Of a stretch of DNA of 64,000 bases, positions 8,310-64,000 are shown piece after piece. The notes beneath the pieces are model-generated. The model did not search any database and had not been told where the DNA came from. It saw nothing but the letters and a program-made list of their open reading frames with translations. Every line of letters begins with the position of its first letter. Position 1 is the stretch's first letter. The DNA lies in contig CP084166.1 of assembly GCA_021513695.1 (NCBI GenBank), positions 896,001-960,000 on the forward strand. Direction: 5' to 3'. Origin of the DNA: Candidatus Heimdallarchaeum aukensis (lineage in GTDB: Archaea; Asgardarchaeota; Heimdallarchaeia; Heimdallarchaeales; Heimdallarchaeaceae). The translations under genes and the position numbers were made by a program.

Positions 8310-8344
8310 CTTTTTTTTAAATATTCATTAAAATCTTTTCTTTT

Positions 8345-9350
8345 AAAGCATGTCCAAAAATTAATTTTTATTAATGTGGGGGTTTATGTCGGAAGTATGA
8401 GTTTCTTTCAGATCATAGACCCCCACAAAGCAAGAGAATTCATAATCATTAATGAACCTTTCCTTAAGAAACTGGTGAAAGAGGAACCGAGAGAAAGTAA
8501 GAGAGGGAGAAAAAGAATAGCAGAAAGGTGGGTGATACTGGCTTTAGCGATCATTGCGAGAATAGAAGGAATTGCTTGGAGGAAGTTAGAGGAAAAGTTG
8601 TCTTTATGCGATTTTTTGATAGAAGAGGGGTGGATGAAGAAGATTCCTTCCAAATCTACTTTTCATGCAGTGTGGAGAGCGACAGAAAGTAAGTTGCTGG
8701 AGCGGTGGATAATAGATTTAGGTAGGGAAATAGTAAGGAAAAAAGGGTTGAAAGCTATGTCGGTGGATAGTTCAGGTTTTAAAATTCGTCAAGCTTCTGT
8801 TTGGCGTTTTCTCAAGTGGGCAAGAGGAGGACTAAAGAAAACCTCCAAACTTTTCTGGAAGATACACCTTATAGTTGGTTTACCCTCTCGAGCTATAGTC
8901 TCTCTTGCTCATTCTGCTAGTAACACTCACGATAGTAAAGTCTTCGGTTTACTATGGCAGAAACTTCCTTCTGCACTCTTGAGACCTTTCTTGAGATTCT
9001 ATGGAGACTGCGCTTACTGGACAGAAAATATCGTGGGACTTCTTAGCCAACATTCCTTTTTTCCTGTTATTCCTCCAAAAAGTAATGCTCGTTATCCCTC
9101 TCCTCCTCCTCTTGGACCAATAGTTCAAGCTCATCGTCTCTACCCTGGTCTCTATCGTCATAATCACCACCCCGAGTATCGTAGTAGTATTGAACATGTC
9201 TTTGGTCTCCTCAAACTCTCTCTTCCCCCGATTCTTGATCGCTTACCCTCCACCATCCTCTCTACCTTGTACAGTTCTCTTCTCTGTTACAACTACCTTT
9301 TACTCCTTCGGACTGTATAGTTGGTGAAAAAGAATTTTTGGACATGCTTT
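8345..9350 (+). mobile_element. IS element copy 1 (IS4/IS5-superfamily-like), intact, about 1006 bp, terminal inverted repeats AAAGCATGTCCAAAAATT
   Basis: Perfect 18-bp terminal inverted repeats at 8345-8362 and 9333-9350 enclose a single transposase ORF. A second, almost identical copy lies at 15464-16470. Confidence 0.8.
8376..9320 (+). CDS. DDE transposase (IS4/IS5-like)
   Basis: 314 aa; candidate catalytic residues in DSSGF, GDCAYW and YRSSIEHVFGLLK (R-x3-E-x6-K tail characteristic of IS4/IS5 transposases). Confidence 0.7.
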   Translation: MGVYVGSMSFFQIIDPHKAREFIIINEPFLKKLVKEEPRESKRGRKRIAERWVILALAIIARIEGIAWRKLEEKLSLCDFLIEEGWMKKIPSKSTFHAVWRATESKLLERWIIDLGREIVRKKGLKAMSVDSSGFKIRQASVWRFLKWARGGLKKTSKLFWKIHLIVGLPSRAIVSLAHSASNTHDSKVFGLLWQKLPSALLRPFLRFYGDCAYWTENIVGLLSQHSFFPVIPPKSNARYPSPPPLGPIVQAHRLYPGLYRHNHHPEYRSSIEHVFGLLKLSLPPILDRLPSTILSTLYSSLLCYNYLLLLRTV

Positions 9351-9397
9351 TTTAATAGAACATTAAATATTTATATCTATATATTATGTAACTATCA

Positions 9398-11317: not shown

Positions 11318-12081
11318 GGTAGTGTCTAGTTTTTATACCACCTCCTAGGTAAAAAGGAACTAAGGGGAGGATGTCCCAAGCTCTGATGAGGACGAACGAA
11401 ATTATAATGGAGCATAAAGAGAGTAAGAAAACCAGAAAGATGAGTAGAGCCATAGACGGCACGGATAGGACAAGTGCAGTGGAGAATAGAATGAAACCAA
11501 CGATAACTCTTAAGAGTAGCATTAAAACGTTCAATATAGGAGCGTAAACCACCTTTGATAACGGAGATTTTGATACCTAGACGAAGTAAGACAGGATACC
11601 ATACCCCTGCATCTGTAACGACAATACGGGGCTTAAAACCCCAACATTTGAGCCAATAACGGAAAGTTAGTAAACATTCAAGATTACTCCGTCCTTTAGT
11701 AATACTAAAACCCAGTAAAGTCTTGTTGTAAGGATCTAACGCGAACCACAGATATATTGAGCCTTGAGAGGTCCTAATCTCTGTTTCATCTACTACTATA
11801 ATCTCTGGTATTCCCCCTCTCTCTGCTACAACTCTATGTAAACTTTCCCTAAAGAGCCTGAACTTCTTTACCCAATACCATAATGTTTGATGCGTTAAAC
11901 CATTCTTCCATGCTACTGTCCTCAACCCATTCTTTGAACCAATATATTCATAAATCGCTTTTATTATTATTTTTTTGGGGACTCTGCATCTCTTAAAAAG
12001 AGCAGATAGTTTTTGTGTTTTCATATCTTACTATTAGAGTCCCCACAAATATTTTTGTCGGAAGAAAACTAGACACTACCC
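11318..12081 (-). mobile_element. Intact IS6-family insertion sequence, 764 bp, 17-bp terminal inverted repeats GGGTAGTGTCTAGTTTT, flanked by an 8-bp target site duplication TTCACTAG
   Basis: Perfect IRs at 11318-11334 and 12065-12081. Identical 8-bp direct repeats lie immediately outside at 11310-11317 and 12082-12089; IS6 elements generate 8-bp TSDs. Confidence 0.8.
11326..12024 (-). CDS. IS6-family DDE transposase
   Basis: 232 aa; VVDETEI, IVVTDAG and ERFNATLKS with C-terminal HQSLGH motif, as in the IS26/IS240 transposase family. Confidence 0.75.
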   Translation of the reverse strand: MKTQKLSALFKRCRVPKKIIIKAIYEYIGSKNGLRTVAWKNGLTHQTLWYWVKKFRLFRESLHRVVAERGGIPEIIVVDETEIRTSQGSIYLWFALDPYNKTLLGFSITKGRSNLECLLTFRYWLKCWGFKPRIVVTDAGVWYPVLLRLGIKISVIKGGLRSYIERFNATLKSYRWFHSILHCTCPIRAVYGSTHLSGFLTLFMLHYNFVRPHQSLGHPPLSSFLPRRWYKN

Positions 12082-15333: not shown

Positions 15334-15463
15334 TTATATATTTCTAAAAGAGGAGATAAAATCATTGTTACGCTTACAGACAAGCTATTATGAATCGAAA
15401 TTCTCAAATGAAAGTAATATTATATGTTTTTGTCTATCTTCAATTAAATATTAAATAATTAAT

Positions 15464-16470
15464 AAAGCATGTCCAAAAATTAATTTTTATTAATGTGGGG
15501 GTTTATGTCGGAAGTATGAGTTTCTTTCAGATCATAGACCCCCACAAAGCAAGAGAATTCATAATCATTAATGAACCTTTCCTTAAGAAACTGGTGAAAG
15601 AGGAACCGAGAGAAAGTAAGAGAGGGAGAAAAAGAATAGCAGAAAGGTGGGTGATACTGGCTTTAGCGATCATTGCGAGAATAGAAGGAATTGCTTGGAG
15701 GAAGTTAGAGGAAAAGTTGTCTTTATGCGATTTTTTGATAGAAGAGGGGTGGATGAAGAAGATTCCTTCCAAATCTACTTTTCATGCAGTGTGGAGAGCG
15801 ACAGAAAGTAAGTTGCTGGAGCGGTGGATAATAGATTTAGGTAGGGAAAATAGTAAGGAAAAAAGGGTTGAAAGCTATGTCGGTGGATAGTTCAGGTTTT
15901 AAAATTCGTCAAGCTTCTGTTTGGCGTTTTCTCAAGTGGGCAAGAGGAGGACTAAAGAAAACCTCCAAACTTTTCTGGAAGATACACCTTATAGTTGGTT
16001 TACCCTCTCGAGCTATAGTCTCTCTTGCTCATTCTGCTAGTAACACTCACGATAGTAAAGTCTTCGGTTTACTATGGCAGAAACTTCCTTCTGCACTCTT
16101 GAGACCTTTCTTGAGATTCTATGGAGACTGCGCTTACTGGACAGAAAATATCGTGGGACTTCTTAGCCAACATTCCTTTTTTCCTGTTATTCCTCCAAAA
16201 AGTAATGCTCGTTATCCCTCTCCTCCTCCTCTTGGACCAATAGTTCAAGCTCATCGTCTCTACCCTGGTCTCTATCGTCATAATCACCACCCCGAGTATC
16301 GTAGTAGTATTGAACATGTCTTTGGTCTCCTCAAACTCTCTCTTCCCCCGATTCTTGATCGCTTACCCTCCACCATCCTCTCTACCTTGTACAGTTCTCT
16401 TCTCTGTTACAACTACCTTTTACTCCTTCGGACTGTATAGTTGGTGAAAAAGAATTTTTGGACATGCTTT
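15464..16470 (+). mobile_element. IS element copy 2 (IS4/IS5-like), same IRs as copy 1, transposase inactivated by a 1-bp insertion
   Basis: Inverted repeats AAAGCATGTCCAAAAATT at both ends. Sequence is identical to copy 1 except an extra A in the A-run at about 15847 (GGGAAAATAG vs GGGAAATAG). Confidence 0.8.
15495..16440 (+). pseudogene. Frameshifted transposase of IS copy 2
   Basis: The transposase reading frame is split into 131-aa and 190-aa ORFs whose translations are identical to the N- and C-terminal parts of the 8376-9320 protein. Confidence 0.75.
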
Positions 16471-16600
16471 AATAATTAAATACTAAATAATAATTTAATA
16501 ATTAAATATTAAATAATAAAAAAATTTATTTTGGAATACATATTCTATTTTAATTTCTAAAAGAAAAAAATATAAAAATATTTGAATCTTTACATTAAGT

Positions 16601-21930: not shown

Positions 21931-22355
21931 TTTATCTTACTTTTTATTTTTTTTCTAATAAGTTGTTAGTTTTTAGCTTTTTCCAACTTTTTATTTTTGT
22001 ATAAATATCTTTGATTTGTTTCTTGTTGTTTTTTATAATGTGAGATTATCTTTCATCAGTTAGAATCTAGTTGTTGTTTTCACAAATGGTTTTTTTTACA
22101 ACATGGGGTTCTTTTAGTTCTTGATTGTTTCAATTTTCTTTTTTTTTAGAAAAACTTTAGTGATAATTATTACTTGAGAACTTTTGTTTCTAGTTTTTTT
22201 ATAGTTGATTTAAGCGATAACCTATTATTGATTTTACTGCATTTCCTTCTTTCTCTTTTTTCCATAATTATTCTTTGACTAGTAGAATAGTATTCTTTTT
22301 ATTCTCTAGTTTAGCTATTTTACTCAGTAAGCATCGCTTTAGGAGAAGTGTAGGA

Positions 22356-23588
22356 ATGGAAGAAAGTAAAGACTACTTTTACGACATCCAATTAGATAAA
22401 AAAAATTCTTTAAATAATCAAATGAGAGAAACTCTTCAATCCTTTATTAATTCATTTCCTTTCTATGTTATGCTTATTGACGAGGATCATCACATTCAGC
22501 TTGCTAACAACGCTATCTTAGACCAATTGAAAATGGATCCTACTGCTATTGTTGGTTGTTATTGTCCTTCCAAAATTCACGGTTTAGATTCTCCTTTTGC
22601 TGGTTGTCCTCTTGAAGCATCTAAATCTTCTCTTAAAGCTATTGAACGAGAATATTATTTTAAAGAAGAAGACAGGTGGGTTCGCTCTACTGCTTATCAT
22701 ACTAATATTTTTACTCCTGAAAACAAACGTCTTTTTATTCATCTTACTATTGACATTACTGCTCAGAAGAATGCTGAAAATAAATTGAAGCGTTCTGAGG
22801 AGAAGTATCGTCTTCTTGCTTCTAAATTACAAAAGCTTAATGATTTACATAAGAAATTGAATGAGATCCAAGAGATTTTTATTTACGAACGAGATAAGAC
22901 TTCTTTAATTCATCGTATATGTTCAAAGTTGTCAGAACTTATTAGTTATGATCTTTGTTGGATAGGTATTTTAGATTCAGGTAAGTTAAAGATTTTGGCT
23001 AGTTCTAGTTCTGATTCTGATTCTGGTTCTAGTTCAAGTTCTAGAATTAAAGACTTTTTTACTACTGAAATTGACCTTCATTCCGATGGTCGTTATTCTT
23101 GTTTACATAAGGTTATTGAGCAAAAACAATTAATTGTTATTAACAAGGATAATTTTTCTTGTTCTGATTGTCTATTCCACGACACTTCTTCACCTAATTC
23201 TATCTTAATCTTTCCTATGATTGTTAACGACAATGTTTATGGTATTATCAGTTTATATAAGTCTGAGAGTCACATCTCTGAAAACGAGATATCTATTTTA
23301 CAGACTGTTGCTAATGCTTTAGCTTTTGCTCTTCAATCTATTGAATTAATTGAAAGTCAGAATGAAGCTTTTTCTCAGCTTAAGAGAAATATTGATTATT
23401 TAGAAGATATAATCGATAAAATTAGAAATCCTCTTACTGTTATTCAAGGTTTCGTTGAACTTTATATGAAAGATAAAAGCAGTGCAGCTATCATTAAAGA
23501 ACATATTAACCAAATTGTAGAGATTCTTTCTAAAGTTGACGAAAAATATATTCGTTCTACTGACTTATTCAAACAGTATACTGAATAA
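22356..23588 (+). CDS. PAS/GAF sensor-like protein with degenerate HisKA-like C-terminus (no phospho-acceptor His, no ATPase domain)
   Basis: N-terminal PAS-like region with motif GCYCPSKIHG...FAGCPLE, Ser/Asp low-complexity linker, GAF-like middle, and C-terminal IRNPLTVIQGF resembling the HisKA box but lacking His. Paralog of 29883-31076. Confidence 0.55.
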   Translation: MEESKDYFYDIQLDKKNSLNNQMRETLQSFINSFPFYVMLIDEDHHIQLANNAILDQLKMDPTAIVGCYCPSKIHGLDSPFAGCPLEASKSSLKAIEREYYFKEEDRWVRSTAYHTNIFTPENKRLFIHLTIDITAQKNAENKLKRSEEKYRLLASKLQKLNDLHKKLNEIQEIFIYERDKTSLIHRICSKLSELISYDLCWIGILDSGKLKILASSSSDSDSGSSSSSRIKDFFTTEIDLHSDGRYSCLHKVIEQKQLIVINKDNFSCSDCLFHDTSSPNSILIFPMIVNDNVYGIISLYKSESHISENEISILQTVANALAFALQSIELIESQNEAFSQLKRNIDYLEDIIDKIRNPLTVIQGFVELYMKDKSSAAIIKEHINQIVEILSKVDEKYIRSTDLFKQYTE

Positions 23589-24068: not shown

Positions 24069-24276
24069 GTTTATGTGATTAATTTATAACATATATATTT
24101 TTTGGTTGTAATCCAAACTGTTTTGCTAATAAGATAATTAATGTTATCAGAACACATACATGTATTGTCAATTTTTATTCGTCACAAGAACTATCTTATA
24201 CTCCACATTACATTGGTGTGACGTAATACTTATATGGACAATTACCAATGGCCATCAAAACAAGGATAGTGAGATA

Positions 24277-25221
24277 ATGATGGATGCTATTACAACCTTT
24301 TCATTTGGATTATATCTTTTATTTGCATTTATAGCTTTAATTTGTGAATATATTGATTCAGCTTTAGGTGGGGGATATGGAACTATTCTTGTTCCTGTAA
24401 TGATGATCGCCTTTAATATTGATAAGAAATTCCTTATTCCTGCTGTTCTTGTCAGCGAGACAGTCACTGGTCTTGGTTCAGCATTGCTTCATCATTATGT
24501 AGGCAATGCGAATTTTAATATACGAAAAAAGAATAATTCAAGTGAATTCAATAAAACAAATGATATTCTAAAGAGATACAATTCTCCATCTAGTATAATT
24601 AAAGAAAACGGTTACTGTCAAAATTTCTTCTATAGATCTCTAATTACTCGTGCTAAAGATTTTCTTAATAGTTTTAAGGTTTCAGACGACTTTAAAGTTT
24701 CAATGATTTTAGGTTTCTTTGGTATTATTGGTGGCATTTCAGCTGCTTTTCTTTCTTTAAGATTATCTCAAACTTTTGTCAAGATATATATTGGAGCACT
24801 TGTCTTTTTAGTCGGTTTGTTTGTTTTAATAGGTTTCAAATGGAAATTCACGTGGGTTAAAATCTCCATTATTGGTCTAGTTGCAGCGTTTAATAAAGGT
24901 TTATCAGGTGGAGGATATGGACCTCTTATTTCCTCAGGTCAGATTGTTGTAAACCGCAATCCTCGCCAAGCTGTTGCTTCAACTTCACTAGCTGAAGCTT
25001 TAGTATGTATCTCTTCCTTGGTTGTTTATTTTTCTTGCCCAGAAATTACCTTTAATTTTGGTTTCTTGTTTCTCTTACTTTCTCTTTTTATAGGAGCAAC
25101 CCTTTCTGCTCCTCTAGCGGTTCTAACTGTAAAGTATATACCACTTAAGAAAATGCAACCAATTGTTGGACTTGTAACCATGTTATTAGGAATTTTTACG
25201 TTGGTTAAGGTCTTCATTTGA
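24277..25221 (+). CDS. TauE/SafE-family (DUF81) membrane exporter
   Basis: Two internal repeats each carrying a G-x-GGG-Y-G motif (SALGGGYGTILVPV and GLSGGGYGPLISSG) within a polytopic membrane protein. Start moved to the internal Met at 24277. Confidence 0.55.
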   Translation: MMDAITTFSFGLYLLFAFIALICEYIDSALGGGYGTILVPVMMIAFNIDKKFLIPAVLVSETVTGLGSALLHHYVGNANFNIRKKNNSSEFNKTNDILKRYNSPSSIIKENGYCQNFFYRSLITRAKDFLNSFKVSDDFKVSMILGFFGIIGGISAAFLSLRLSQTFVKIYIGALVFLVGLFVLIGFKWKFTWVKISIIGLVAAFNKGLSGGGYGPLISSGQIVVNRNPRQAVASTSLAEALVCISSLVVYFSCPEITFNFGFLFLLLSLFIGATLSAPLAVLTVKYIPLKKMQPIVGLVTMLLGIFTLVKVFI

Positions 25222-25380
25222 AACAAATTTTTATTAATTATTTTATTTTCAGCAAAAGTTCTCTTACTTCAGGTGGGGATAGTTCATACTGCAATTTTCA
25301 CTTTTCACTTGGTGGATACAAAAAGCGAAATAGTAAATTAGTAAAGTAAAAGCAAATAAAACTAGACTTCTTCACTAAAG

Positions 25381-25665
25381 AATATGATATACTAAATCTC
25401 TATACTCTATTCTCTTCTCTTCTCTTTTCTTTTCTTTTCTTTTCTTGGTTGTATGCATGACTTATTTTTTTACGTAAGTTTGTAAAAATTGAATTGAGGG
25501 AGGAGTGAATGTAAAAAAGAAAAAAGAAAAAAGAAAGGAGGAAGGGAGAAGAGAGGAAAATGAGGGGTTTTTATAAGGAAAAAAGGTATAAGTAAGTAAG
25601 AAGAGAAGAAGAAAAGTAAAAAAAAGAAAGAAAAAAAAAGAAAAAAAAGGAAGGAGTAAAGAAGG
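25381..25665. repeat. Low-complexity tract: CT-rich run followed by a long AG-rich run (mirror/imperfect-palindrome purine-pyrimidine tracts) immediately upstream of tnpB
   Basis: (CTCTT/CTTTT)n at about 25381-25450 and (GAAAA/GGAAG)n at about 25500-25665; generates the spurious ORF 25470-25829. Confidence 0.7.
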
Positions 25666-27126
25666 ATGGAGGGCGTCGTTAAAACCTTGAAAGTGAGAAT
25701 AAAGAATGAGGTGTTGACGACTAGAAAAAAGCTAAGGTTAAGGAGAATAACGGGGAGAGACACAAGGATTATAGAAAAGTATGTGAGAATAATACACCAT
25801 AACAGAAGAAAGATATGTATACGAACCAAAAAAGGGAAAATAAGAGTACATAGAGGAAAATTAGATGAGTTGACGCTTACTACTTCAAAAGTTAAAGAAG
25901 AAGAGATGAGAACGACTGTTCCTCACGACCTTAAGAAAATGTTTCCTTACTGTTCTCACAATGAGTTTCAAGAGTGTAGAGATATAGCTGTGCAACTGTA
26001 CGAGCAAGGATATCGACCCAGTTCTAAACGTCCTCTCATAAAGAGAGTAAGAAGGCAACTAATTAATGGAAAAAGATTCATCCTTGTTCATCTACCAAAA
26101 GAAAAGAATAACACTCTTACTCGTTGGTGGGTGGGAATAAGAGACTCGTTAGACACGTGGAAAAGAAATACCCCCTACCATCAGAAGTTGTGGTTACCTT
26201 TAGAGATAAGCACTTTTCATCAGAAAGAGTTGAAAAAAGGACAAGTGAAAAGCCTAGAATTAAGATATAAGCATTCTACACGTGAGTGGTGGGTGTATTT
26301 TCAACTAAAAGTTCTCCCTCCTTCTTCTTTTCTAAGCGATAATTCCTCTTCTTCTTCTCTTCCTCCAGCTGTGCTGGGAATAGATCTGGGGATAAACATT
26401 CCAGGTGCAGGAGTGCTTCTAGCCCCTAAAAAGAAGTTAACTATTAAAGAGATAAAATTCTGGTATACCAAACAGTGGAATAAATTTAATCATAGATATA
26501 AACTTAAACTTTCCCGTCTTCAGAGGAAAGCGGCTTTAAATGACCAGTCGGGTAAAAAACACCAAATTTATCGTTTTCTTGGATATCTTCGAAGAAGATA
26601 TAGAAACGTTAAACGAGCCTATATTCACCAATTTGTAAGCGATATTGTGCGGACAATAGAGAGTTATGCGCAAGTGTATGATCTTTTTGTCGTCGTAGGT
26701 TACCCCAAAAATGTTAGAAAAGGAAAAGGAAAAGAAAAAGGGAAAAGTAAAAGTACTCGTTATTTTCGCAGAAAACTTCATCAGTGGAACTATGCTCATG
26801 TTCTTGGTCTTCTCCGTCGAGCATTGATATTAAGAGGTTTTGCTCCTCACCGCATTCTTATAATAGACGAAAGAGGAACATCTTCTCATTGTTCACGTTG
26901 TGGAAAAGAAGTTTCTCGTCCCGTCAGAGGGTTAGTCTCTTGTCCCTCTTGTAACTATACCTTCCACTCTGATTTAACAGGAGCTAGAAATATTGCTCTT
27001 AAGTTCCTTAGTCATCTTTTTCGTCCCCGTGTTACAACTATTACTGATTACTTTACTGGTCAAAAATTCAGTCTTACCCATTACACTGTTTGCCGAGGGC
27101 TCAGCCATTGGTTGCAGTCCCAGTAG
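25666..27126 (+). CDS. tnpB: TnpB (IS200/IS605-family OrfB, RuvC-like RNA-guided nuclease), solo without tnpA
   Basis: 486 aa. N-terminus MEGVVKTLKVRIKNEV.. matches the typical TnpB start. RuvC-I motif GIDLGINIPGAG. C-terminal zinc ribbon CSRCGKEVSRP...CPSCNYTFHSDLTGARNIA. Confidence 0.8.
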   Translation: MEGVVKTLKVRIKNEVLTTRKKLRLRRITGRDTRIIEKYVRIIHHNRRKICIRTKKGKIRVHRGKLDELTLTTSKVKEEEMRTTVPHDLKKMFPYCSHNEFQECRDIAVQLYEQGYRPSSKRPLIKRVRRQLINGKRFILVHLPKEKNNTLTRWWVGIRDSLDTWKRNTPYHQKLWLPLEISTFHQKELKKGQVKSLELRYKHSTREWWVYFQLKVLPPSSFLSDNSSSSSLPPAVLGIDLGINIPGAGVLLAPKKKLTIKEIKFWYTKQWNKFNHRYKLKLSRLQRKAALNDQSGKKHQIYRFLGYLRRRYRNVKRAYIHQFVSDIVRTIESYAQVYDLFVVVGYPKNVRKGKGKEKGKSKSTRYFRRKLHQWNYAHVLGLLRRALILRGFAPHRILIIDERGTSSHCSRCGKEVSRPVRGLVSCPSCNYTFHSDLTGARNIALKFLSHLFRPRVTTITDYFTGQKFSLTHYTVCRGLSHWLQSQ

Positions 27127-27466
27127 ATAAAAAAGTTCCTTTCTTTTATATCAAGGGATAGGTTCTTTTTTGTCTCTCGTGGAGTGAAGAAAGAAAAAGT
27201 TCTTTTCTTCTTTATGATTCCCATGATTCGTGTATGAGGTCTGTCTCAACCCCTCCCATTCATTGTATTATTGGTTGAGTTCGCAAGAGATCAAACTTTC
27301 TCCTTGCTTGTTTTTTCTCTTGAAAGACTGAGTGCGAAAAACTTACGTAAAAAAGTAAATCATAATCTCTTAATTTGTTAATAACCACACTTATCATTCA
27401 TTCAAGTTGTCTAATAAATGCCTATAGAAATACTCTTTAAGTGATGTTGTTAGATTTTATTTACTT

Positions 27467-28027
27467 ATGCATTTTGTAATTATTTTTGGTCCTCCTGCTG
27501 TTGGTAAAATGTCTGTTGGTAAAGAACTAGCCAATATTACCGGTTTCAAATTATTTCATAATCATATGTCTATTGAACTCGTTTTGACTCTTTTTGATTA
27601 TGGTACTCCTGAATTTAAGCAACTGAATTCTTCTATCCGCAGATTAATTTTCGAAACTGTTTCTTCTAGTAACTTAAGTGGTTTTATTTTTACTTTTGTT
27701 TGGGCTTTTAACATCCCTGAAGATAAACAATATGTTGAATTTGTTTCTGAAATTTTCAGAAAGAATAATTGGAAAGTTTATTTTGTTGAATTACAGTGTA
27801 GTCTTCAAGAGCGTTTAAGAAGAAATAAAACTGAAGAACGATTAAGAGAAAAACCTTCCAAACGCTCAATTAAAGAATCAGAGCAAAGGTTATTGGAGTG
27901 CGAAAAAAAATATGTTTTAAACACTCAGGGAGATTTTTATTTTCCTGAAAAATATATTAAAATTGATAATACTTCCCTTTCTGCTATTGAAGTAGCGGAG
28001 AGAATTAAGAGTTATTTCAACTTTTAA
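27467..28027 (+). CDS. P-loop NTPase, small nucleotide/nucleoside kinase-like (AAA_33-like)
   Basis: 186 aa; Walker A IIFGPPAVGKMSVGKELA at the N-terminus; size and layout like shikimate/adenylate-kinase-fold proteins. Confidence 0.45.
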   Translation: MHFVIIFGPPAVGKMSVGKELANITGFKLFHNHMSIELVLTLFDYGTPEFKQLNSSIRRLIFETVSSSNLSGFIFTFVWAFNIPEDKQYVEFVSEIFRKNNWKVYFVELQCSLQERLRRNKTEERLREKPSKRSIKESEQRLLECEKKYVLNTQGDFYFPEKYIKIDNTSLSAIEVAERIKSYFNF

Positions 28028-29882: not shown

Positions 29883-31076
29883 TTAAGGTTGATTATACAT
29901 ATCTTGCTCTTTTAGCATTTTTGTTGTTTCTTTATATTTTTTATCTATTTTTTTCATTTTTTTAATAATTTTGTCTATTTGTTCGCGAAAAAGTTGATAC
30001 ATTCCATTTGTTTCGAATTTTAAATCGCTCATTCCTTTCATTACCGTTAAGGGATTTACTATTTGGTCTAGTAATTCTTCTAGTTCTTTTTTGTTCTGTA
30101 ATAATTGGTTTAGCGCTTTTTCTCTTTCTTCGTTAATTTCCAGCATTTCTATGGAAAAACCTAATTCGTTCGCTATTGTGCTAAGAATCACTTCTTCATG
30201 TTCAAAGAACTCTTCCCGTTCTGTTAATAATACCATTATCCCAAATTGTTTCTGTGCTGCGAACATTGGAATAATGACTATATAGCGTGGAGTTTTTCTC
30301 TGTAAAATTGTTGAAGGTACAGCAAGTTCTCTTGCAGAAAAAATTGCATTCTGGTCAAGTTTTACTTTTCTGTTCAATTTATCTAAAAAATTGTATAACT
30401 CTTGTTTTTCTACTTCAGTCAAGTGAGGTCTTGAATTGAGCAATTCTAGCTTTTCATCTTTTTTTCTCAAAATAAAACAATATGTGTAATCGCGGAACTT
30501 ACTTAGTTCTCTAGAGATTGTATCAACCAATACTTGTTTATCTTTAATGTAAATTAGTTTGTTTTGCACAGAAACAGTTACTTTTCCTAACTCGTATATT
30601 TTTTCCAGTTTTTTGGAAAGAAGTTCGAACTTTTCACTTGCTTCAATTAGTTTTTCCTCAGCAAGTTTTCTTTTGGTTATATCAACAGTATAACAAATAA
30701 AGACTCTTTTTCCTTCGTATGTGTAAAAGTTGCTAAAATAAACTCCTGAAATCAACCAACTTTTTTCACCGTATTTGATCTCTCGTTGCACATTTTTTGA
30801 AATCGCTATAGCTTTTTCCAATGGACATCCGCGAAATAGATTATTGACCCCGTGAACAAGATGAGAACAATATCTTCCTATAATTTGTTTTTTTTCTAAA
30901 CCCAATTTTTTTTGGAAAATATCATTAACTAACAGTATGTTATGCTTTTCATCTACTAAAATTATTGGATAAGAAAAACTATCTATGAAACTCTGGATTA
31001 TTGCTATACATTCTTTTGTTAGAATAATTTTCTCTTTTGGTAAACTTACTGGAAAAGTAACATCTTCTCTAATCAT
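29883..31076 (-). CDS. PAS/GAF sensor-like protein, paralog of 22356-23588
   Basis: Shares the N-terminal block FSYPIILVDEKHNILLVN...GRYCSHLVHG...FRGCPLE and C-terminal NPLTVMKGM with the other sensor; no ATPase domain. Confidence 0.55.
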   Translation of the reverse strand: MIREDVTFPVSLPKEKIILTKECIAIIQSFIDSFSYPIILVDEKHNILLVNDIFQKKLGLEKKQIIGRYCSHLVHGVNNLFRGCPLEKAIAISKNVQREIKYGEKSWLISGVYFSNFYTYEGKRVFICYTVDITKRKLAEEKLIEASEKFELLSKKLEKIYELGKVTVSVQNKLIYIKDKQVLVDTISRELSKFRDYTYCFILRKKDEKLELLNSRPHLTEVEKQELYNFLDKLNRKVKLDQNAIFSARELAVPSTILQRKTPRYIVIIPMFAAQKQFGIMVLLTEREEFFEHEEVILSTIANELGFSIEMLEINEEREKALNQLLQNKKELEELLDQIVNPLTVMKGMSDLKFETNGMYQLFREQIDKIIKKMKKIDKKYKETTKMLKEQDMYNQP

Positions 31077-42341: not shown

Positions 42342-45300
42342 ATTTTCACACTACTTAGTTCAGCTTAAACCTCGTACTTGCTTGCAGAAGCACCTAGCAC
42401 GTAGTAATTTTCACACTACTTAGTTCAGCTTAAACCTTTCGATAATGATGGTGTTAGTGGTGAAGTGCAAAATTTTCACACTACTTAGTTCAGCTTAAAC
42501 AATCTATCAAGTGTCTCATTTTTTACGTTTCCTAGATTTTCACACTACTTAGTTCAGCTTAAACAATAACGTTTGAACATTGTTCTCGAATTCTTCATAA
42601 ATTTTCACACTACTTAGTTCAGCTTAAACAGTTGATGAAGGTGTGACAAAGTGTGACACTTCGATATTTTCACACTACTTAGTTCAGCTTAAACATTCTA
42701 CTTTTTTCTCAATCAATTTACAAGTTAGAGCGTCATTTTCACACTACTTAGTTCAGCTTAAACAGAACTAGGATCAGTCTCGGTCCATTCAGAAACTCGA
42801 TTTTCACACTACTTAGTTCAGCTTAAACTCCTAAAATAATAACTGATCCTAAGAATCCTGATAAGATTTTCACACTACTTAGTTCAGCTTAAACCCAGAG
42901 TGAGAACGGGGTTATAGGTCAATAATAAAGAAATTTTCACACTACTTAGTTCAGCTTAAACTTTGTTTTGATTTTTCTTTCTTTCAGGATAGCATCAATT
43001 TTCACACTACTTAGTTCAGCTTAAACAAATGGCTAAAAGAACCACAAGAACTTCAAGAAAATAATTTTCACACTACTTAGTTCAGCTTAAACTTTACATT
43101 TATATAACTTCCCCAGAAGATTATATATAATTTTCACACTACTTAGTTCAGCTTAAACCAGCAATGTTGGCACATCTCCCCACTCTACTTTCTCATTTTC
43201 ACACTACTTAGTTCAGCTTAAACATTACTCTTTTTTCTTTACAAAACATTTATATATTATATTTTCACACTACTTAGTTCAGCTTAAACGTTATATTAAG
43301 TGTTAAATAGTTCTCTTTTCCTTCTTATTTTCACACTACTTAGTTCAGCTTAAACGTAAAAAAATGAGTAATTCAGAAGAACATTTTCACACTACTTAGT
43401 TCAGCTTAAACTGAAAACCTTATAGGCTGGCGTGAATACGCAAACCTAATTTTCACACTACTTAGTTCAGCTTAAACACGTTTCCAAGTAAATCTGTTAC
43501 TATTTCAAATTTATTTTCACACTACTTAGTTCAGCTTAAACTGATTTACGTTACCCTCATGTTTGTTATGTTTATTTATTTTCACACTACTTAGTTCAGC
43601 TTAAACGAATTTACTTTACACAATGATCGTGCTGATACTGTTTTATTTTCACACTACTTAGTTCAGCTTAAACACATTGCTTGATATTGGAATTTTATAT
43701 CTTAATATATTTTCACACTACTTAGTTCAGCTTAAACCTGACTTTTTTGGAGAATTTGGTTTCGCTGATAGTAATTTTCACACTACTTAGTTCAGCTTAA
43801 ACTAGAAAATTGTATTCTTCAAACTATACGTATAGATATTCCATTTTCACACTACTTAGTTCAGCTTAAACCTTAAATTATCTTCAAACCAATCAGAATA
43901 ATAAAGTTCATATTTTCACACTACTTAGTTCAGCTTAAACATAAATATCGCTATTTCTCCTTTCTTAACTGTTCTTAATTTTCACACTACTTAGTTCAGC
44001 TTAAACCATAATCTATCATAAAAAAGTCTCCTATATCATAAGTATTTTCACACTACTTAGTTCAGCTTAAACACTATTTTTCCACCTTCTCTTTCTTCCC
44101 ATTCTCTCTTATTTTCACACTACTTAGTTCAGCTTAAACTTTGTACTTCACTGTGCTTAATATCTCTACTTATACTATTTTCACACTACTTAGTTCAGCT
44201 TAAACTTTATCACCCCTCATATATTTATTATACTTCCTAAAATTTTCACACTACTTAGTTCAGCTTAAACCGTACACCCATTCCTTAGGTGTCCAGTCTA
44301 ATACTTATTTTCACACTACTTAGTTCAGCTTAAACTCACCTATATATATGATGTTCTAACACATAAAAATCATTTTCACACTACTTAGTTCAGCTTAAAC
44401 CTGACTTTTTTGGAGAATTTGGTTTCGCTGATAGTAATTTTCACACTACTTAGTTCAGCTTAAACTAGAAAATTGTATTCTTCAAACTATACGTATAGAT
44501 ATTCCATTTTCACACTACTTAGTTCAGCTTAAACCTTAAATTATCTTCAAACCAATCAGAATAATAAAGTTCATATTTTCACACTACTTAGTTCAGCTTA
44601 AACATAAATATCGCTATTTCTCCTTTCTTAACTGTTCTTAATTTTCACACTACTTAGTTCAGCTTAAACCATAATCTATCATAAAAAAGTCTCCTATATC
44701 ATAAGTATTTTCACACTACTTAGTTCAGCTTAAACACTATTTTTCCACCTTCTCTTTCTTCCCATTCTCTCTTATTTTCACACTACTTAGTTCAGCTTAA
44801 ACTTTGTACTTCACTGTGCTTAATATCTCTACTTATACTATTTTCACACTACTTAGTTCAGCTTAAACTTTATCACCCCTCATATATTTATTATACTTCC
44901 TAAAATTTTCACACTACTTAGTTCAGCTTAAACCGTACACCCATTCCTTAGGTGTCCAGTCTAATACTTATTTTCACACTACTTAGTTCAGCTTAAACTC
45001 ACCTATATATATGATGTTCTAACACATAAAAATCATTTTCACACTACTTAGTTCAGCTTAAACCTCATAACAAATGGATAAAGACTATTGAAATCAAGAA
45101 TTTTCACACTACTTAGTTCAGCTTAAACCAATTATTATCGCAACAGCCATCTCAAGATCACCTTATTTTCACACTACTTAGTTCAGCTTAAACGTTTTTG
45201 AATAACAGTCTGTGAAGAGAGAGAAGCAAATTTTCACACTACTTAGTTCAGCTTAAACGTCTTATTTCGTTAAAATCTTCAACAATAGCTTGTTGATTTT

Positions 45301-48300
45301 CACACTACTTAGTTCAGCTTAAACACTTTAGACGTGAAAAATTGGTTAATGGTTTTAGGTGATTTTCACACTACTTAGTTCAGCTTAAACGTAAAGAGAA
45401 AAGAAGAAAGAAAAAGAACGATAAAAGAATTTTCACACTACTTAGTTCAGCTTAAACGAGATATTGCAACATTTTGCTACAAAAATATCTAAAAAATTTT
45501 CACACTACTTAGTTCAGCTTAAACTTTGAAGTATCTGTGATGTCTTTTGTGACTACTCCTGATTTTCACACTACTTAGTTCAGCTTAAACCTTACAGAGG
45601 GAGAATATGCGGGACAATATATTATTACATTTTCACACTACTTAGTTCAGCTTAAACATAGAAGAAGAGCTCATTACAACTTTCCTTTTCCGTGATTTTC
45701 ACACTACTTAGTTCAGCTTAAACAAGCGTCAGTAGCACCTACAAGCGGGACATTCACAAGATTTTCACACTACTTAGTTCAGCTTAAACTCTATTTTATA
45801 TACTTTCTCTAATTCTAAACTTCTACTATTTTCACACTACTTAGTTCAGCTTAAACAGTAGAAATGAAGGGGGGGTTAGGAGCTAGAAAAAATTTTCACA
45901 CTACTTAGTTCAGCTTAAACCAATTCTGTTAATTTGTTTATTTCTTCCCATCTTTCATTTTCACACTACTTAGTTCAGCTTAAACGATAAATGGTACAAT
46001 CGTTTGAACCCTTTTAGAAGAAATTTTCACACTACTTAGTTCAGCTTAAACAAGGTTATCGCCTTTACATTTAGGGTTCTCACAAGTAATTTTCACACTA
46101 CTTAGTTCAGCTTAAACTATTTATGTAAAAGTCCTCTTCATCTATTATTAAACTATTTTCACACTACTTAGTTCAGCTTAAACACTATAACTTTAAGCAC
46201 TTGTTTTACTATATCGAAAAATTTTCACACTACTTAGTTCAGCTTAAACAGTCCGTTCTCGTTTCTTATTTCTTCGTCATCGGTTCTAATTTTCACACTA
46301 CTTAGTTCAGCTTAAACATGATTTTGTATAGTTTCCTCTCTTTATAAATGAAAATTTTCACACTACTTAGTTCAGCTTAAACTCAGCGTTTTGTAGTTCT
46401 ATTTTTCGTAAGTCGTCATATTTTCACACTACTTAGTTCAGCTTAAACCATTTCTCCACCTCTTTTTCATTTCTACTTGTTCTAATTTTCACACTACTTA
46501 GTTCAGCTTAAACTTGCTCTCTAAATATATTGCATACATTCCTTTTCTGATTTTCACACTACTTAGTTCAGCTTAAACTGAACAAACACTCACAATCTTA
46601 TCTAATCTTTCAAACGTATTTTCACACTACTTAGTTCAGCTTAAACAAACTGAAGTCATGTCAAAGTTAGAAGCCCAACTATATTTTCACACTACTTAGT
46701 TCAGCTTAAACGAGCTTTTACTGAAGCAGAACTAAAAAGAAATACCCCAAATTTTCACACTACTTAGTTCAGCTTAAACCATTGAATTCCTCTTTCTTCC
46801 TCTGCACAATAGTGAATTTTCACACTACTTAGTTCAGCTTAAACACGGTGCTCTGAAATGATGGAGTTTGAACAAAAATATTTTCACACTACTTAGTTCA
46901 GCTTAAACGTACAATTATGTTAAATATAGAAGAATAAAAAGGAATTTTCACACTACTTAGTTCAGCTTAAACGATAAAAATGGTAGAAGAGCATAAGAAG
47001 AATGAGCTTAATTTTCACACTACTTAGTTCAGCTTAAACTCTATCCTCCTTTTTTTTGGTTTGCAGTTTATACAAGAATTTTCACACTACTTAGTTCAGC
47101 TTAAACTTCATAGAACTTGATGTTAGGGTTAGGAAAAACCTCATTTTCACACTACTTAGTTCAGCTTAAACTGTAGCTTTGAAAGTTTATCATAGTTATG
47201 TGAGAATTATTTTCACACTACTTAGTTCAGCTTAAACAGATGAAATTTCCGAATTAGTTACTTTATTTCCGTCTGATTTTCACACTACTTAGTTCAGCTT
47301 AAACATTGGAGCTCTTCCCTTGACAATACAAATATTACAAATTTTCACACTACTTAGTTCAGCTTAAACGAACGATTACAGTATAGAACAGACGAATATT
47401 ATTATATTTTCACACTACTTAGTTCAGCTTAAACATCAGCAACTCTTTGCTGGTTCTCAAGAGCTTTTTGATTTTCACACTACTTAGTTCAGCTTAAACG
47501 TGAAAAGTCTCTTGTGTAGGTATATCGTGCTGCGTATTTTCACACTACTTAGTTCAGCTTAAACAGGTTCTCACTTTGGACAAAAGAAGCAAGTTTAGAC
47601 GAATTTTCACACTACTTAGTTCAGCTTAAACTTTCTCCTGAAAGAAGATCGTATGGTAACGAATACGTATTTTCACACTACTTAGTTCAGCTTAAACTCT
47701 ACCACAATGAAGATCATGAGAAGAAACCCACACATTTTCACACTACTTAGTTCAGCTTAAACATTTTTTTCACCCATAATCATTTCCACCCCTCTTTGAT
47801 TTTCACACTACTTAGTTCAGCTTAAACTCAAGGTCAAAATGGGGAAAAAGGTCGAACTATGGTATTTTCACACTACTTAGTTCAGCTTAAACAACGCTTG
47901 TTTTGGGGTTTCACACCCCAAAATCTTATTTTCACACTACTTAGTTCAGCTTAAACTCTGCTTTATCTTCTTCTTTTTCACAATCTCTATGAATTTTCAC
48001 ACTACTTAGTTCAGCTTAAACTTTGCACCTATTATATTTTAAGAGTAAAGAATATAATTTTCACACTACTTAGTTCAGCTTAAACCAGAGAAAGACGCGG
48101 GTTCAATTTCGTATAAGTAAGTAATTTTCACACTACTTAGTTCAGCTTAAACTATCTTCTTTATCTCTTTTTCTACTAACTCATTCTTATTTTCACACTA
48201 CTTAGTTCAGCTTAAACTAGATAAAGGAAGTTTAGATAAAGCGATACAAGAATTGCTAAATTTTCACACTACTTAGTTCAGCTTAAACAAGCGAGTTCAG

Positions 48301-48420
48301 TATCTTCTTTTTCCTCATAGACCTTAATTTTCACACTACTTAGTTCAGCTTAAACATTTATTCCTGCTATACGCAATAGACTTGAAAACGTATTTTCACA
48401 CTACTTAGTTCAGCTTAAAC
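42342..48420 (-). CRISPR. CRISPR array 1: about 92 copies of the 29-bp repeat ATTTTCACACTACTTAGTTCAGCTTAAAC (+ strand) with 35-40 bp spacers; leader at the 48420 end, so it is transcribed on the - strand
   Basis: Perfect periodic repeat of about 66 bp seen directly; the transcribed orientation is GTTTAAGCTGAACTAAGTAGTGTGAAAAT, identical to array 2. Confidence 0.95.
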
Positions 48421-48569: not shown

Positions 48570-50075
48570 TTATTTTTTTGCTATTTTCTCTGCAATTACA
48601 GGATGTTTTTCGTTTACTGCATACCAGAATTTTGCCTTTCCTTTTAAATTTGGTTTTATTATTATCCATCCCTTTTTTTCCATATCTACTAGGATTCTTG
48701 GTTTATTCATTTTGAATTGATTTATGTTTATTTTTTTATGATCATGGTATTTATTTTCTTTTTGCATCCATTCATTTATTTTCCTGAAGCTCCCTGCAGC
48801 TAATCCACCTATCAAGATTGACCCATCCATACAGAGTTTGTATTCTTTTGGTTTTTCCAGTACTGACATGTATTTATCTATCATAAAGTCTAAAATTATT
48901 TCATGTTCTCCCTCTGGCCTTTCGAACATTTTTTCTTTTGTTCCTTCTTTAATTATTTTATTTTTTAGTTTGTCTAGTTGACTATTTTTTTCAAGAAGCA
49001 ACCTATTTTTTTCATGTGGGTCCCATAAATTTATTTTCTCAATTAATATTTGTTCTAAGTTTTGATACTCTCTTTCAATTACTAATTTTGTACTTATTTT
49101 CTTGAATATTTTTCTCTGGTAATTTTGTGGCAGGTAGTATGATCTTCTTCCTATAGAGTGATATAGAATTGGATTTAGGGTATTAACTATATAGTTTACT
49201 AGAGCTATTTTTTCTTCCATGTTTAGCTCCGAAAAGATATTTTCTTCTATTATTGATACTATTCTTTGTATTAGAGTTTTAATCATGAAAGCTGTTAGAA
49301 TAGCTTTTTTTACTCTCTTTTTGAATAATTCATTTTTCTTTTTGTAATGTACTATAGCATAAGTATCAATTCCGAGGGATAAAACGTCTATTTTTTCCTT
49401 TGAGCTATATATCTTTTCTATGTTTTTTTCTTCTAACTTTTGAAAATGAACACTAGGTAATTCAATTATTGAGATGACATTTGAAGATTCTAAATAAATA
49501 TTACTAAATTCTTTAAAGAATGCTCTAAGCAAACAAAATTTTACCTGTTCATTTTTCTTTTTTTTGCCTTTTTCATTTGTAAATATTTTTATTATTTCCC
49601 TTCGTAAATTTTCTAAACTCTCTTCTTCCAGAATTTTTTCACTTAAAATTACTTTCTTTTCTACTTCAGCTATTAATGATGGATAAATGTTTATCTTTTT
49701 TAATCCATTTACGATTTTAACTACTGTTCTTGGTTCATTCCAATAAACAGTTCTTGTTTCAATTGGAATAAGCGGTCTTAAAGGCACTCTTCTAAAAAAT
49801 AAATATTTTTTAGCGTAATAGTACAGATATGAATCATTAGTCAATTTCAGAAAAAGACTTGAGTAGTATGGAATGAAAATGTCGAACTTTTTTCTACCTT
49901 TTCTTATTACCATTTTTATTCTTTTTTTGAACTCTGTTTCTGATTTAAGGAAAGAGAGTTCTTTTCTAATCTTTTTTGAATAAAGGATTTCTGGAATGGC
50001 ATAAAACTGATGGAAAGAGATTTTTATTGTATTCATTTTATTCTCCCTAATACCATTTTTGAAGAGTAGTATCAT
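48570..50075 (-). CDS. Uncharacterised 501-aa Lys-rich protein encoded inside the CRISPR-cas locus (between the array 1 leader and cas6)
   Basis: Long ORF with coding periodicity; it overlaps the upstream ORF by 29 bp (operon); no recognisable catalytic motif. Confidence 0.5.
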   Translation of the reverse strand: MILLFKNGIRENKMNTIKISFHQFYAIPEILYSKKIRKELSFLKSETEFKKRIKMVIRKGRKKFDIFIPYYSSLFLKLTNDSYLYYYAKKYLFFRRVPLRPLIPIETRTVYWNEPRTVVKIVNGLKKINIYPSLIAEVEKKVILSEKILEEESLENLRREIIKIFTNEKGKKKKNEQVKFCLLRAFFKEFSNIYLESSNVISIIELPSVHFQKLEEKNIEKIYSSKEKIDVLSLGIDTYAIVHYKKKNELFKKRVKKAILTAFMIKTLIQRIVSIIEENIFSELNMEEKIALVNYIVNTLNPILYHSIGRRSYYLPQNYQRKIFKKISTKLVIEREYQNLEQILIEKINLWDPHEKNRLLLEKNSQLDKLKNKIIKEGTKEKMFERPEGEHEIILDFMIDKYMSVLEKPKEYKLCMDGSILIGGLAAGSFRKINEWMQKENKYHDHKKININQFKMNKPRILVDMEKKGWIIIKPNLKGKAKFWYAVNEKHPVIAEKIAKK

Positions 50076-52022: not shown

Positions 52023-52745
52023 TTGTTGATGAGGATTCTTATTTCTTTTAAGCCTAAATTTGATGTTTCAGAGGATGCCATAGTAAAACATGATATTCAA
52101 GGATTTATTTATAATCTAATCAAGTACAAAGATACTAAAGTTCTTTTAGATCATGATAAACATCATTTCAAATTTTTTTGTTTTAGCGATATTTTTCCTC
52201 AAGGTGATTTTAAAAAAGGAGAGACAAAAAATCTGTTAATTAGTTCTCCTACAAAAGAGCTAATAAATTTAATTGATGATAATCTTCCTCTTGAGAAATC
52301 CTATAGATTAGCTGGATTAACCATCGAAGTTATATCCAAAAAAACTTTTAACTTTCCCACAAAAAACAACTTTATTTCTGGAAGTCCTATAGTTTTATAC
52401 AAAGATAATACAAAGAATGAATATTTTAGCTTTAAGAAACACAAAAGTCTTAATTTCTTTCTCAATAGATTACAAGAAAATGCTGTGAAAAAGTATCAAA
52501 TTTACTATAACGATCCTGAATTTCAATTGTCTGGAAAGATTTTTGATACAATTGAATTTAGAAAGGAGGTTGCAGTTCACAACAGGAAACAAGGAAATGA
52601 ATTTATTCACATTGGCACTCTTTGGAAAAAATTAGAAAAAGAATACATAAAGAAAGAAGAAAGAAGGTTTTATCATTTTATCATGGAAAGTGGTCTTGGC
52701 GAAAAAAATAGTATGGGTTTTGGTTTTTTAAATCCTATTCAATAA
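52023..52745 (+). CDS. cas6: Cas6 (crRNA endoribonuclease), type I-B
   Basis: 240 aa; C-terminal glycine-rich loop GLGEKNSMGFGFL; first gene of the cas operon. Confidence 0.85.
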   Translation: MLMRILISFKPKFDVSEDAIVKHDIQGFIYNLIKYKDTKVLLDHDKHHFKFFCFSDIFPQGDFKKGETKNLLISSPTKELINLIDDNLPLEKSYRLAGLTIEVISKKTFNFPTKNNFISGSPIVLYKDNTKNEYFSFKKHKSLNFFLNRLQENAVKKYQIYYNDPEFQLSGKIFDTIEFRKEVAVHNRKQGNEFIHIGTLWKKLEKEYIKKEERRFYHFIMESGLGEKNSMGFGFLNPIQ

Positions 52746-52850
52746 ATTGTATTTTTTTGTTTAAATTTTACAATTAATTTTTGAAAAAACAACCTTTAAA
52801 ATATTTTTTTCTTTCTGTTTTACCAATAAAACTTAATTATTGGTGTTCCA

Positions 52851-55785: not shown

Positions 55786-55791
55786 TAATAG

Positions 55792-58990: not shown

Positions 58991-59002
58991 CGAAATGATG
59001 GA

Positions 59003-59031
59003 GTTCAAGCTAAACTAAGTAGTATGAAAAT
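59003..59031 (+). repeat. Orphan degenerate CRISPR repeat (26/29 identity to the array repeat) between cas3 and cas4
   Basis: GTTCAAGCTAAACTAAGTAGTATGAAAAT compared with GTTTAAGCTGAACTAAGTAGTGTGAAAAT; same orientation as array 2. Confidence 0.6.
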
Positions 59032-59073
59032 TAGAGGTAGAAGTAATGGTATTAAATTCTTGGTGAAATTGTA

Positions 59074-63900: not shown

Positions 63901-64000
63901 TAAATAGATTTTTCTGATTGGGTTTAAGCTGAACTAAGTAGTGTGAAAATTTCTACTTCAAAGAATGAGCACCAATAGTTAAACCAGTTTAAGCTGAACT
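60972..64000 (+). CRISPR. CRISPR array 2: at least 46 copies of GTTTAAGCTGAACTAAGTAGTGTGAAAAT with 35-40 bp spacers, leader-proximal end at 60972, continues beyond the window end
   Basis: Perfect periodic repeat seen directly; transcribed on the + strand away from cas2. Confidence 0.95.

Follow-up and report, generated by a model that had tools for sequence, protein, structure and literature searches.

Results

Locus and features of the tnpB element

We analyzed a window of 64,000 nucleotides (nt) from Candidatus Heimdallarchaeum aukensis, with positions counted from its first letter, and studied the tnpB gene that it carries together with the sequences on either side of this gene. Closed genomes are available for Ca. 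H. aukensis (3.08 Mb) and for its sister Ca. H. endolithica (CP084167); the paper that describes them (Wu et al. 2022, PMC8813620) reports eleven transposase/integrase families of at most 27 copies each and does not use the name TnpB. The genes around the element in the window are housekeeping genes. The original prediction for this locus, made from the sequence alone, described a solo tnpB without an adjacent tnpA, and this holds: open reading frame (ORF) and Pfam scans place a TauE-like permease gene upstream (24160-25221) and an AAA/kinase-like gene downstream (27467-28027) whose product shares 100% identity with a Ca. H. aukensis protein, no transposase lies in the element or adjoining it, and the element has no second ORF. 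As a whole, the locus is best explained as a non-autonomous, TnpB-only insertion sequence (IS) of Ca. H. aukensis with a guide-RNA end, a reading that we hold to be likely. The element and its parts are as follows:

25456..27363, + strand: whole mobile element of 1908 bp (left end, purine-rich leader, tnpB, omega-RNA region and right end), delimited by the limits of homology among copies
25457..25481, + strand: left terminal inverted repeat ATGACTTATTTTTTTACGTAAGTTT, from an inverted-repeat search (25 nt, 92% complementary to 27339-27363)
25482..25665, + strand: purine-rich 5' leader (~82-90% A+G) with a TATA-box-like TTTTTATAA at 25568-25576, from copy comparison
25666..27126, + strand: tnpB ORF of 486 amino acids (aa; GenBank UJG41590.1, annotated 'transposase'), from Pfam, NCBIfam and AlphaFold2/Foldseek
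27097..27363, + strand: omega-RNA-like structured region with 11 helices, from the last 30 nt of the ORF to the right end, from RNAalifold
27186..27210, + strand: hairpin GAAGAAAG / TTTTCTTC, which is helix 5 of that region (27186-27193 / 27203-27210), from covariation
27339..27363, + strand: right terminal inverted repeat AAACTTACGTAAAAAAGTAAATCAT, which pairs with the left repeat and would be the 3' terminus of the omega-RNA scaffold
27364..27383, + strand: putative guide segment AATCTCTTAATTTGTTAATA, host DNA directly 3' of the right end, proposed by analogy with the TnpB mechanism
25403..25450, + strand: pyrimidine (CTTTT)n-like microsatellite in the host flank, outside the element and absent beside other copies

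Element boundaries and terminal inverted repeats

The family to which the element belongs has at least 12 loci in H. endolithica and at least five proteins in H. aukensis, and 31 of its sequences fall within one 90% cluster. Comparison with these copies, which the original prediction had proposed, defined both element ends; the CATG at its junctions may be a tip, a target or target-adjacent motif (TAM), or a duplicated target. Homology stops exactly at 27363 in 12 H. endolithica loci and four metagenome copies, beyond which the sequence is unrelated from copy to copy, so the true right end lies at 27363 and not near 27330 as first proposed. The right terminus (...AAAAGTAAATCAT) is the same in every examined copy of the window's subfamily, and the other copies of the element measure 1792-1876 bp. 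The core of the terminal repeat occurs twice in the whole window, both times at an end of the element, and the end sequence can be written GTAAATCAT(G).

The left repeat is preceded by C25456, and the left tip thus reads CATG. This CATG is present at the left junction of 13 of 14 insertion sites (CATA in the remaining one), while the sequence upstream is unrelated among full copies. At the other junction, the element reads ...CAT, and the base that follows this right end is G at 14, A at four and C at one of 19 insertion sites, which is far from random at ~30% G+C and suggests that the two junctions are symmetrical (CATG...CATG). A more distant relative (L013, 43% aa identity) has CATG...CATG inverted repeats of its own, 31 nt long.

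In a metagenome scan with a 19-nt conserved block of the RNA region, four true copies and three chance matches were found. The same block was not found in viral contigs, where a scan with the protein profile returned generic TnpBs only, at no more than ~30% identity over substantial matches. The only other contigs with the downstream gene are broken off within the element's right end, and the flanks of 12 copies had no uninterrupted counterpart in the data searched.

Two further observations concern copies and relatives elsewhere. The metagenome contigs L026 and L027 share an identical TnpB copy and an identical right flank, while farther than 500 nt upstream of the element they are 93% identical and differ by an indel, which could reflect either strain variation or recombination near the element. 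Two relatives of ~37-38% identity (L014, 5870-5920; L080, 4878-4940) are without obvious terminal inverted repeats and have in common a strong hairpin, GGTTCCTCTACT...AGAAGAGGAACC, located 60-130 nt upstream of tnpB. The end architecture therefore appears to differ between subfamilies.

A conserved RNA structure runs from the tnpB 3' end to the element end

From 17 aligned copies, RNAalifold predicted 76 base pairs in 11 helices between 27097 and 27346, with compensatory double changes at 10 of the pairs. Paired cells make up 98.5% of the alignment positions concerned, versus 42-54% after partners are slid by 1-3 columns; double-change cells number 39 versus 3-10 with slid partners, and the covariation score is 0.160 versus at most 0.060 in controls. 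None of 500 shuffles matched the observed paired percentage, covariation score or double-change count. The window sequence folds well even by itself (z score of -3.6). The distance from the stop codon to the right end is 237 nt, within which non-coding blocks are 100% conserved in the 17 copies (for example TTGTCTCTCGTGGAGTGAAGA). A conserved structure of ~270 nt starts in the last tnpB codons and stops exactly at the right end, as judged from the aligned sequences.

This pattern supports an omega-RNA scaffold that would overlap the 3' end of tnpB and extend to the right end of the element, in agreement with the placement first proposed; the covarying structure spans 27097-27363 and ends where copy homology stops. 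The hairpin that the original prediction had singled out (GAAGAAAG/TTTTCTTC) is real: it covaries among copies as helix 5, in which one pair changes from A-U to G-C in five copies, and its stem is preserved across loops of differing length. By analogy with the TnpB mechanism, the first 16-20 nt beyond 27363 would serve as guide; the segment proposed for this role, AATCTCTTAATTTGTTAATA, is unique in the window.

TnpB protein and a relocated, predicted catalytic glutamate

In the tnpB product, Pfam identifies the domain Cas12f1-like_TNB (PF07282) at residues 397-443 (40.7 bits versus a cut-off of 26.3), and the NCBIfam model guided_TnpB (NF040570) matches residues 171-445 only (E value of 1e-21, 77.6 bits), by which score the protein reads as a divergent member of that family. 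A profile built from 80 relatives retrieved Cas12f/TnpB structures in the PDB at E values of 5e-21 to 9e-18. The AlphaFold2 model (predicted local distance difference test (pLDDT) score of 85) has the WED-REC-RuvC-TNB fold. Among its top Foldseek matches is AsCas12f (8j3r; E value of 1.8e-15, template modelling score of 0.51-0.57), with further matches to the TnpBs 8iaz, 8h1j and 8exa; full-length Cas12f/TnpB ternary complexes stand on top, with ISFba1 TnpB and ISDra2 TnpB among the top matches, while Fanzor2 and SpuFanzor rank lower. Of 1.84 billion cluster representatives, only 64 match the N-terminal 230 aa, which indicates a narrow family, and the named sources of relatives are Heimdall- and Thorarchaeota together with one partial sequence labelled Aenigmatarchaeota. 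Residue conservation was read from alignments of 24 and 80 relatives, and the residues of interest are:

26383..26385, + strand: RuvC-I Asp240 (GIDLG), invariant in 80 family members
26698..26700, + strand: Gly345 at the canonical RuvC-II Glu position (VVVGYP), from profile-to-PDB alignment
26869..26871, + strand: predicted relocated catalytic Glu402 (IIDERGTS), invariant in 80 sequences
26890..26952, + strand: CxxC...CxxC zinc ribbon (C409, C412, C426 and C429) of the TNB domain, from PF07282
26971..26973, + strand: RuvC-III Asp436 (HSDLTGARNIA), invariant and aligned with the catalytic Asp motif of AsCas12f

Canonically, the RuvC-II Glu lies at the end of beta-4, ~50 residues before the zinc finger. 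In the profile-to-PDB alignment, Gly345 pairs with the Glu of AsCas12f ('iqmEDL'), and this glycine is nearly invariant in the family. Glu402 is located directly after the beta-strand 397-401 of the AlphaFold2 model and six residues ahead of the first zinc-finger cysteine (C409). Of the zinc-ribbon cysteines, C409, C412 and C426 show no variation in the 80-sequence alignment, and conservation of C429 is at least 90%. With Asp240, the shifted Glu402, Asp436 and a C4 zinc ribbon, the protein belongs by its sequence to a known RuvC-II-rearranged class of TnpBs.

The loss of the canonical glutamate could also mean that the gene is a decayed or inactive relic, in which case the protein would not cut DNA and the element would be a fossil. 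The Gly345 in place of the canonical Glu fits such a reading, as do an NCBIfam score under the curated cut-off and the state of the H. endolithica copies, of which seven of 12 have intact ORFs and five are broken by stops, frameshifts or truncation. However, Glu402 is conserved without exception in the 80 sequences and occupies a position that is catalytic in Fanzor2 and TvTnpB (PMC10530073); the window ORF is intact; and the ratio of nonsynonymous to synonymous substitution rates (dN/dS) among intact copies is ~0.15, which indicates that the protein is under purifying selection. The family is moreover a multi-copy one whose insertions differ between genomes. The original prediction had named loss of the RuvC residues together with absence of RNA structure as the signs of a relic, and what is found is a Glu402 that would stand in for the missing canonical Glu and a conserved structure downstream. 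We therefore regard decay as very unlikely and predict that the protein is an active member of the rearranged-glutamate class.

Separately, a purine-only stretch of the gene (26716-26755) encodes a KGKGKEKGKSKS loop (residues 351-362) directly after the lost catalytic Glu position; the loop has a pLDDT below 50, and both its length and its sequence vary across the family.

Purine and pyrimidine tracts at the left end

A scan of the whole 64 kb for runs of 40 nt with a purine or pyrimidine content of at least 95% returned only four places. One is a pyrimidine tract (25403-25450), two are purine tracts (25507-25568 and 25594-25673), and the fourth is a purine run within tnpB, where it codes for a Lys/Gly loop. 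These tracts are the basis of a 'mirror' feature described in the original prediction, in which CT-rich and AG-rich runs upstream of tnpB could form a long imperfect hairpin or triplex. The tracts themselves are real and exceptional in the 64 kb; they are not one feature, since the CT run lies outside and the AG run inside the element, and the 'mirror' is a juxtaposition of two unrelated tracts.

The purine-rich leader is a property of the element, with a purine content of 72-81% in all 12 full copies and a length of 86-210 nt. Within it, a TTTTTATA(A/G)G block (25568-25576 in the window) is kept in 11 of the 12 copies; this block resembles an archaeal TATA box and could be part of the tnpB promoter. 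In contrast, no such pyrimidine tract precedes any of the 11 other full copies. In a metagenome contig of a related strain that carries the same insertion (L025, 98% identical protein), the tract is present as (CTTTT)7, and since this repeat number differs from that of the window, the tract is a variable host microsatellite.

A functional hairpin, cruciform or triplex made of the two tracts, belonging to the element or directing its insertion or expression, has some points in its favor: the tracts are the only extreme ones in 64 kb apart from the one inside tnpB, they adjoin across the left end, they contain arms of 30-42 nt that are 71-77% complementary, weak miRNA-precursor-like Rfam matches reflect a hairpin potential, and the same tract stands beside the same insertion in the second strain. 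Yet the combined region, as DNA, folds no better than shuffled sequence (z score of -1.2, with 29 of 200 shuffles folding equally well; -0.76 for the strain contig), complementarity of 71-77% is probably near chance for A-rich and T-rich two-letter tracts, and the Rfam matches are far under gathering scores. Together with the lack of the tract beside all 11 other full copies and its variation as a microsatellite, this leaves such a structure with very little probability. The CT tract was also considered as an inverted partial copy of the element and rejected, as no second left-end repeat lies between the tract and the element and the complementarity is compositional.

Comparison with known TnpB, Fanzor and IS605-type systems

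Rearranged glutamates have been catalogued as 'RIIr' branches of TnpB, of which the largest has Glu replaced by Gly (Altae-Tran et al. 2023, PMC10691335). In the mimivirus ApmFanzor2, activity depends on the alternative Glu (E467A abolishes it), and the same arrangement is cleavage-competent in Thermoplasma volcanium TvTnpB ('TnpB2'), which was profiled for activity (Jiang et al. 2023, PMC10530073). Like the RIIr TnpBs, the window protein has Gly at the canonical position and a compensating Glu on the next beta-strand before the zinc finger, and its element carries no gene but tnpB, followed on the 3' side by a long, conserved non-coding region that ends at the transposon end, less than 250 bp from the stop. 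Unlike them, the window family is narrow, comes mainly from Asgard sources and has terminal inverted repeats as its ends.

The shifted Glu, six residues before the zinc finger, is also found in Fanzors and pro-Fanzors, as is a guide RNA overlapping the right inverted repeat, which is what we infer here. Fanzor signatures are a shifted Glu and a DPG motif in RuvC-I (Yoon et al. 2023, bioRxiv 10.1101/2023.08.09.552727), whereas the window family has DLG (DIG in one of 24 aligned sequences), never DPG, and an archaeal host. The family profile matches Fanzor2 at an E value of 2e-10, far weaker than Cas12f/TnpB, and SpuFanzor1 is unmatched by sequence.

An Asgard host is also shared with the TnpBs linked to Asgard Cas1 (Cas1H-Asgard-1/-2), whose signature is a variable stretch followed by GTTCACTCA downstream of tnpB (PMC10691335). 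We found this arrangement ~100 nt after tnpB in three Thorarchaeota-type relatives of 31-35% identity (L015, L083 and L084), with no Cas1 seen within 5-7 kb of any of them. Unlike in Cas1H-Asgard systems, the GTTCACTCA motif is absent from the window and all close copies, and no Cas1 lies in or beside the element; the only Cas1 of the window belongs to a type I-B locus (59605-60591), more than 30 kb away.

In these three relatives (L015:7760-7790, L083:2440-2480 and L084:8790-8830), the downstream region reads GGAACGCAG(A/G)AGT, then ~9-14 variable nt, then GTTCACTCAC, ~100 nt after the stop. In L084, a tRNA-Gly(TCC) gene lies on the opposite strand (8804-8878) directly after the motif, and L015 and L083 have tRNA-like T-arm sequences that are not called by ARAGORN.

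The original prediction had labelled the arrangement IS1341-like, and this label is only partly apt. Like IS1341-type members of IS200/IS605 with their sense-overlapping RNAs at the 3' side, the element is tnpB-only and has a region of non-coding RNA that overlaps the gene's 3' end (PMC4615843; PMC3119063). IS605-type elements are, however, without inverted terminal repeats, and the haloarchaeal ones rarely cluster as many near-identical copies (PMC3119063), whereas the window element has 25-nt inverted repeats at its ends and the 90% cluster described above. If the element were nevertheless of the IS200/IS605 type, a Y1 TnpA would act in trans on its single-stranded ends as in a classical IS1341, and CATG would be both left-flank target and TAM. 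The solo tnpB with an RNA at its right end, the conserved tetranucleotide at the left junction and a short palindrome at each end (ACTT...AAGT, TTACGTAA) that could form a hairpin are in keeping with this. The ends are inverted rather than asymmetric, though, and the prevalence of G after the right end would be unexpected at ~30% G+C if only the left flank were specified. As for the enzyme itself, no Y1 (HUH) TnpA lies inside the element or next to it, and no Y1 gene was seen near any copy. Taken together, we consider an IS200/IS605-type mechanism unlikely.

Mobilization and a proposed mechanism

TnpBs associated with DDE transposases are reported to have symmetrical ends, and for solo copies that share such ends mobilization in trans has been proposed (PMC10691335). 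The window element shares with the DDE-associated TnpBs the inverted terminal repeats around tnpB and an RNA region that abuts the right repeat, and its solo copies are presumably mobilized in trans as well; unlike those systems, no DDE partner with matching ends is present in the window. No transposase or Cas1 was found beside relatives in eight further loci (seven relatives).

We examined partner candidates within the window, namely a DDE_Tnp_1 IS present in two copies and an rve-type ORF, and set them aside, as their ends are unrelated to those of the element. The DDE_Tnp_1 IS is ~1 kb long with ends AAAGCATGTCCAAAAATT, and its copies (8344-9369 and 15463-16489) are 99.3% identical and located inside a glycosyltransferase gene cluster; in the second copy the ORF is split into 131 and 190 aa. 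In H. endolithica, an 88% identical copy of this IS lies 170 nt from a TnpB element (L007). The other candidate is an ORF of ~232 aa (11326-12024, - strand) with sub-threshold Pfam matches to the integrase core (rve_3, rve). At the edge of this ORF, 180 nt share 94% identity with the left flank of an H. endolithica TnpB copy (L008), which suggests that the rve-type ORF represents another shared mobile element.

On the basis of these comparisons, the following mechanism can be proposed. A transcript reading through the right end would turn ~16-20 nt of flanking DNA (27364 onward) into a guide, and the TnpB-RNA complex would then cut guide-matching DNA beside a TAM, that is, the element-free site. 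Repair from an element-bearing copy would restore the element, leading to its retention or homing. The TAM probably lies within, or overlaps, the conserved CATG junction. Movement to new sites would probably take place in trans through a transposase encoded elsewhere in the genome, and the symmetrical inverted-repeat ends point to a double-strand transposase (DDE-like or other) rather than the single-strand Y1 TnpA of IS200/IS605.

As a bolder variant, suggested by the Fanzor-type shifted glutamate, the CATG-tipped inverted repeats, the many copies and the lack of a linked transposase in the loci examined, this Asgard-restricted TnpB lineage may spread without a conventional dedicated transposase, for example through breaks initiated by TnpB and its RNA followed by host repair, or it may be the non-autonomous partner of an undescribed Asgard transposase, for example an Asgard Cas1. 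We regard this variant as distinctly improbable.

CRISPR loci and other features of the window

A complete type I-B locus (cas6, cas8b, cas7, cas5, cas3, cas4 and cas1; 52023-60591) is located between two long arrays of opposite orientation (42342-48420 and 60972-64000), which have a common 29-nt repeat, GTTTAAGCTGAACTAAGTAGTGTGAAAAT, in ~93 and at least 46 units, respectively; the second array runs off the window. Within the first array, at least 300 nt (43709-44008 / 44372-44671, offset of 663 nt) are duplicated with 100% identity, so that a block of several repeat-spacer units is present twice. Two overlapping ORFs of ~500 aa on the - strand (48570-50075 and 50047-51525), without an NCBIfam match, occupy the space between the first array and cas6.

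The presence of these arrays raises the question of whether tnpB, instead of being a transposon gene, encodes a domesticated protein, either an RNA-guided regulator or an effector of the CRISPR type (TldR-like or Cas12f-like). In addition to the two large arrays in the window, this could be argued from the closest solved structures, which are Cas12f by both profile and fold. However, the arrays are at least 15 kb away and part of the complete type I-B cas operon, their repeat is unrelated, and no spacer matches the element: comparison of the 137 window spacers with the element and its loci gave only partial matches of 15-19 nt, which are not meaningful. No array-type repeats are present in 25200-27500. 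The element is moreover a repeat-bounded, multi-copy unit that has different neighbors at every site, with its catalytic residues intact, and no conserved host gene partner or fixed genomic position was seen. Domestication is thus extremely improbable.

Across the whole window, no tRNA genes were detected and no Rfam family reached its gathering score; in E-value mode over 25300-27500, Rfam gave only chance-level matches. Two paralogous genes lie one on each side of the region (22275-23588, + strand; 29883-31076, - strand). The first matches PAS, GAF and HisKA domains, the second was judged only by its resemblance in sequence, and no recognizable ATPase domain was found in either one in the parts scanned.

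Discussion

The above analyses suggest that the window carries a non-autonomous TnpB-only insertion sequence with a guide-RNA end, while several observations weigh against this reading. No partner transposase was identified in the window or beside the relatives examined, and the guided_TnpB score does not reach the 100 bits set for naming. Covariation was read from copies of only two or three subfamilies at ~82-85% identity, so that few independent compensatory events are represented. The covariance-model search that the original prediction had suggested recovered close copies, with no match in distant subfamilies or elsewhere in the window and no Rfam family. The omega-RNA, guide and TAM are roles that we infer by analogy. 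At five of the 19 insertion sites, the right end is followed by a base other than G. Finally, the CATG could be the repeat tip, a palindromic target or TAM, or the product of a 2- or 4-bp target duplication.

TnpB is the ancestor of Cas12 and of the eukaryotic Fanzors. Against this background, the element described here is an ordinary though well-preserved representative of a known kind, and its modest extra interest lies in its inverted-repeat ends, its high copy number, the lack of a linked transposase and its Asgard host. Nothing in our results contradicts current models, and the GenBank annotation 'transposase' is merely less specific. As a predicted, catalytically rearranged nuclease of ~490 aa with a defined boundary between scaffold and guide, the protein is a candidate for genome-editing screens.

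It has long been asked how tnpB-only elements multiply (PMC3119063), and this element provides a clean test case: its ends are exactly mapped, its gene is intact and under selection, its putative guide-RNA scaffold is compact and conserved, and many copies are present in the two closed genomes, which belong to an archaeal lineage near the eukaryotes. If either of the spread routes considered above (breaks initiated by TnpB and its RNA, or an undescribed Asgard transposase) were true, the family would parallel, in archaea, the eukaryotic Fanzor transposons that are bounded by inverted repeats.

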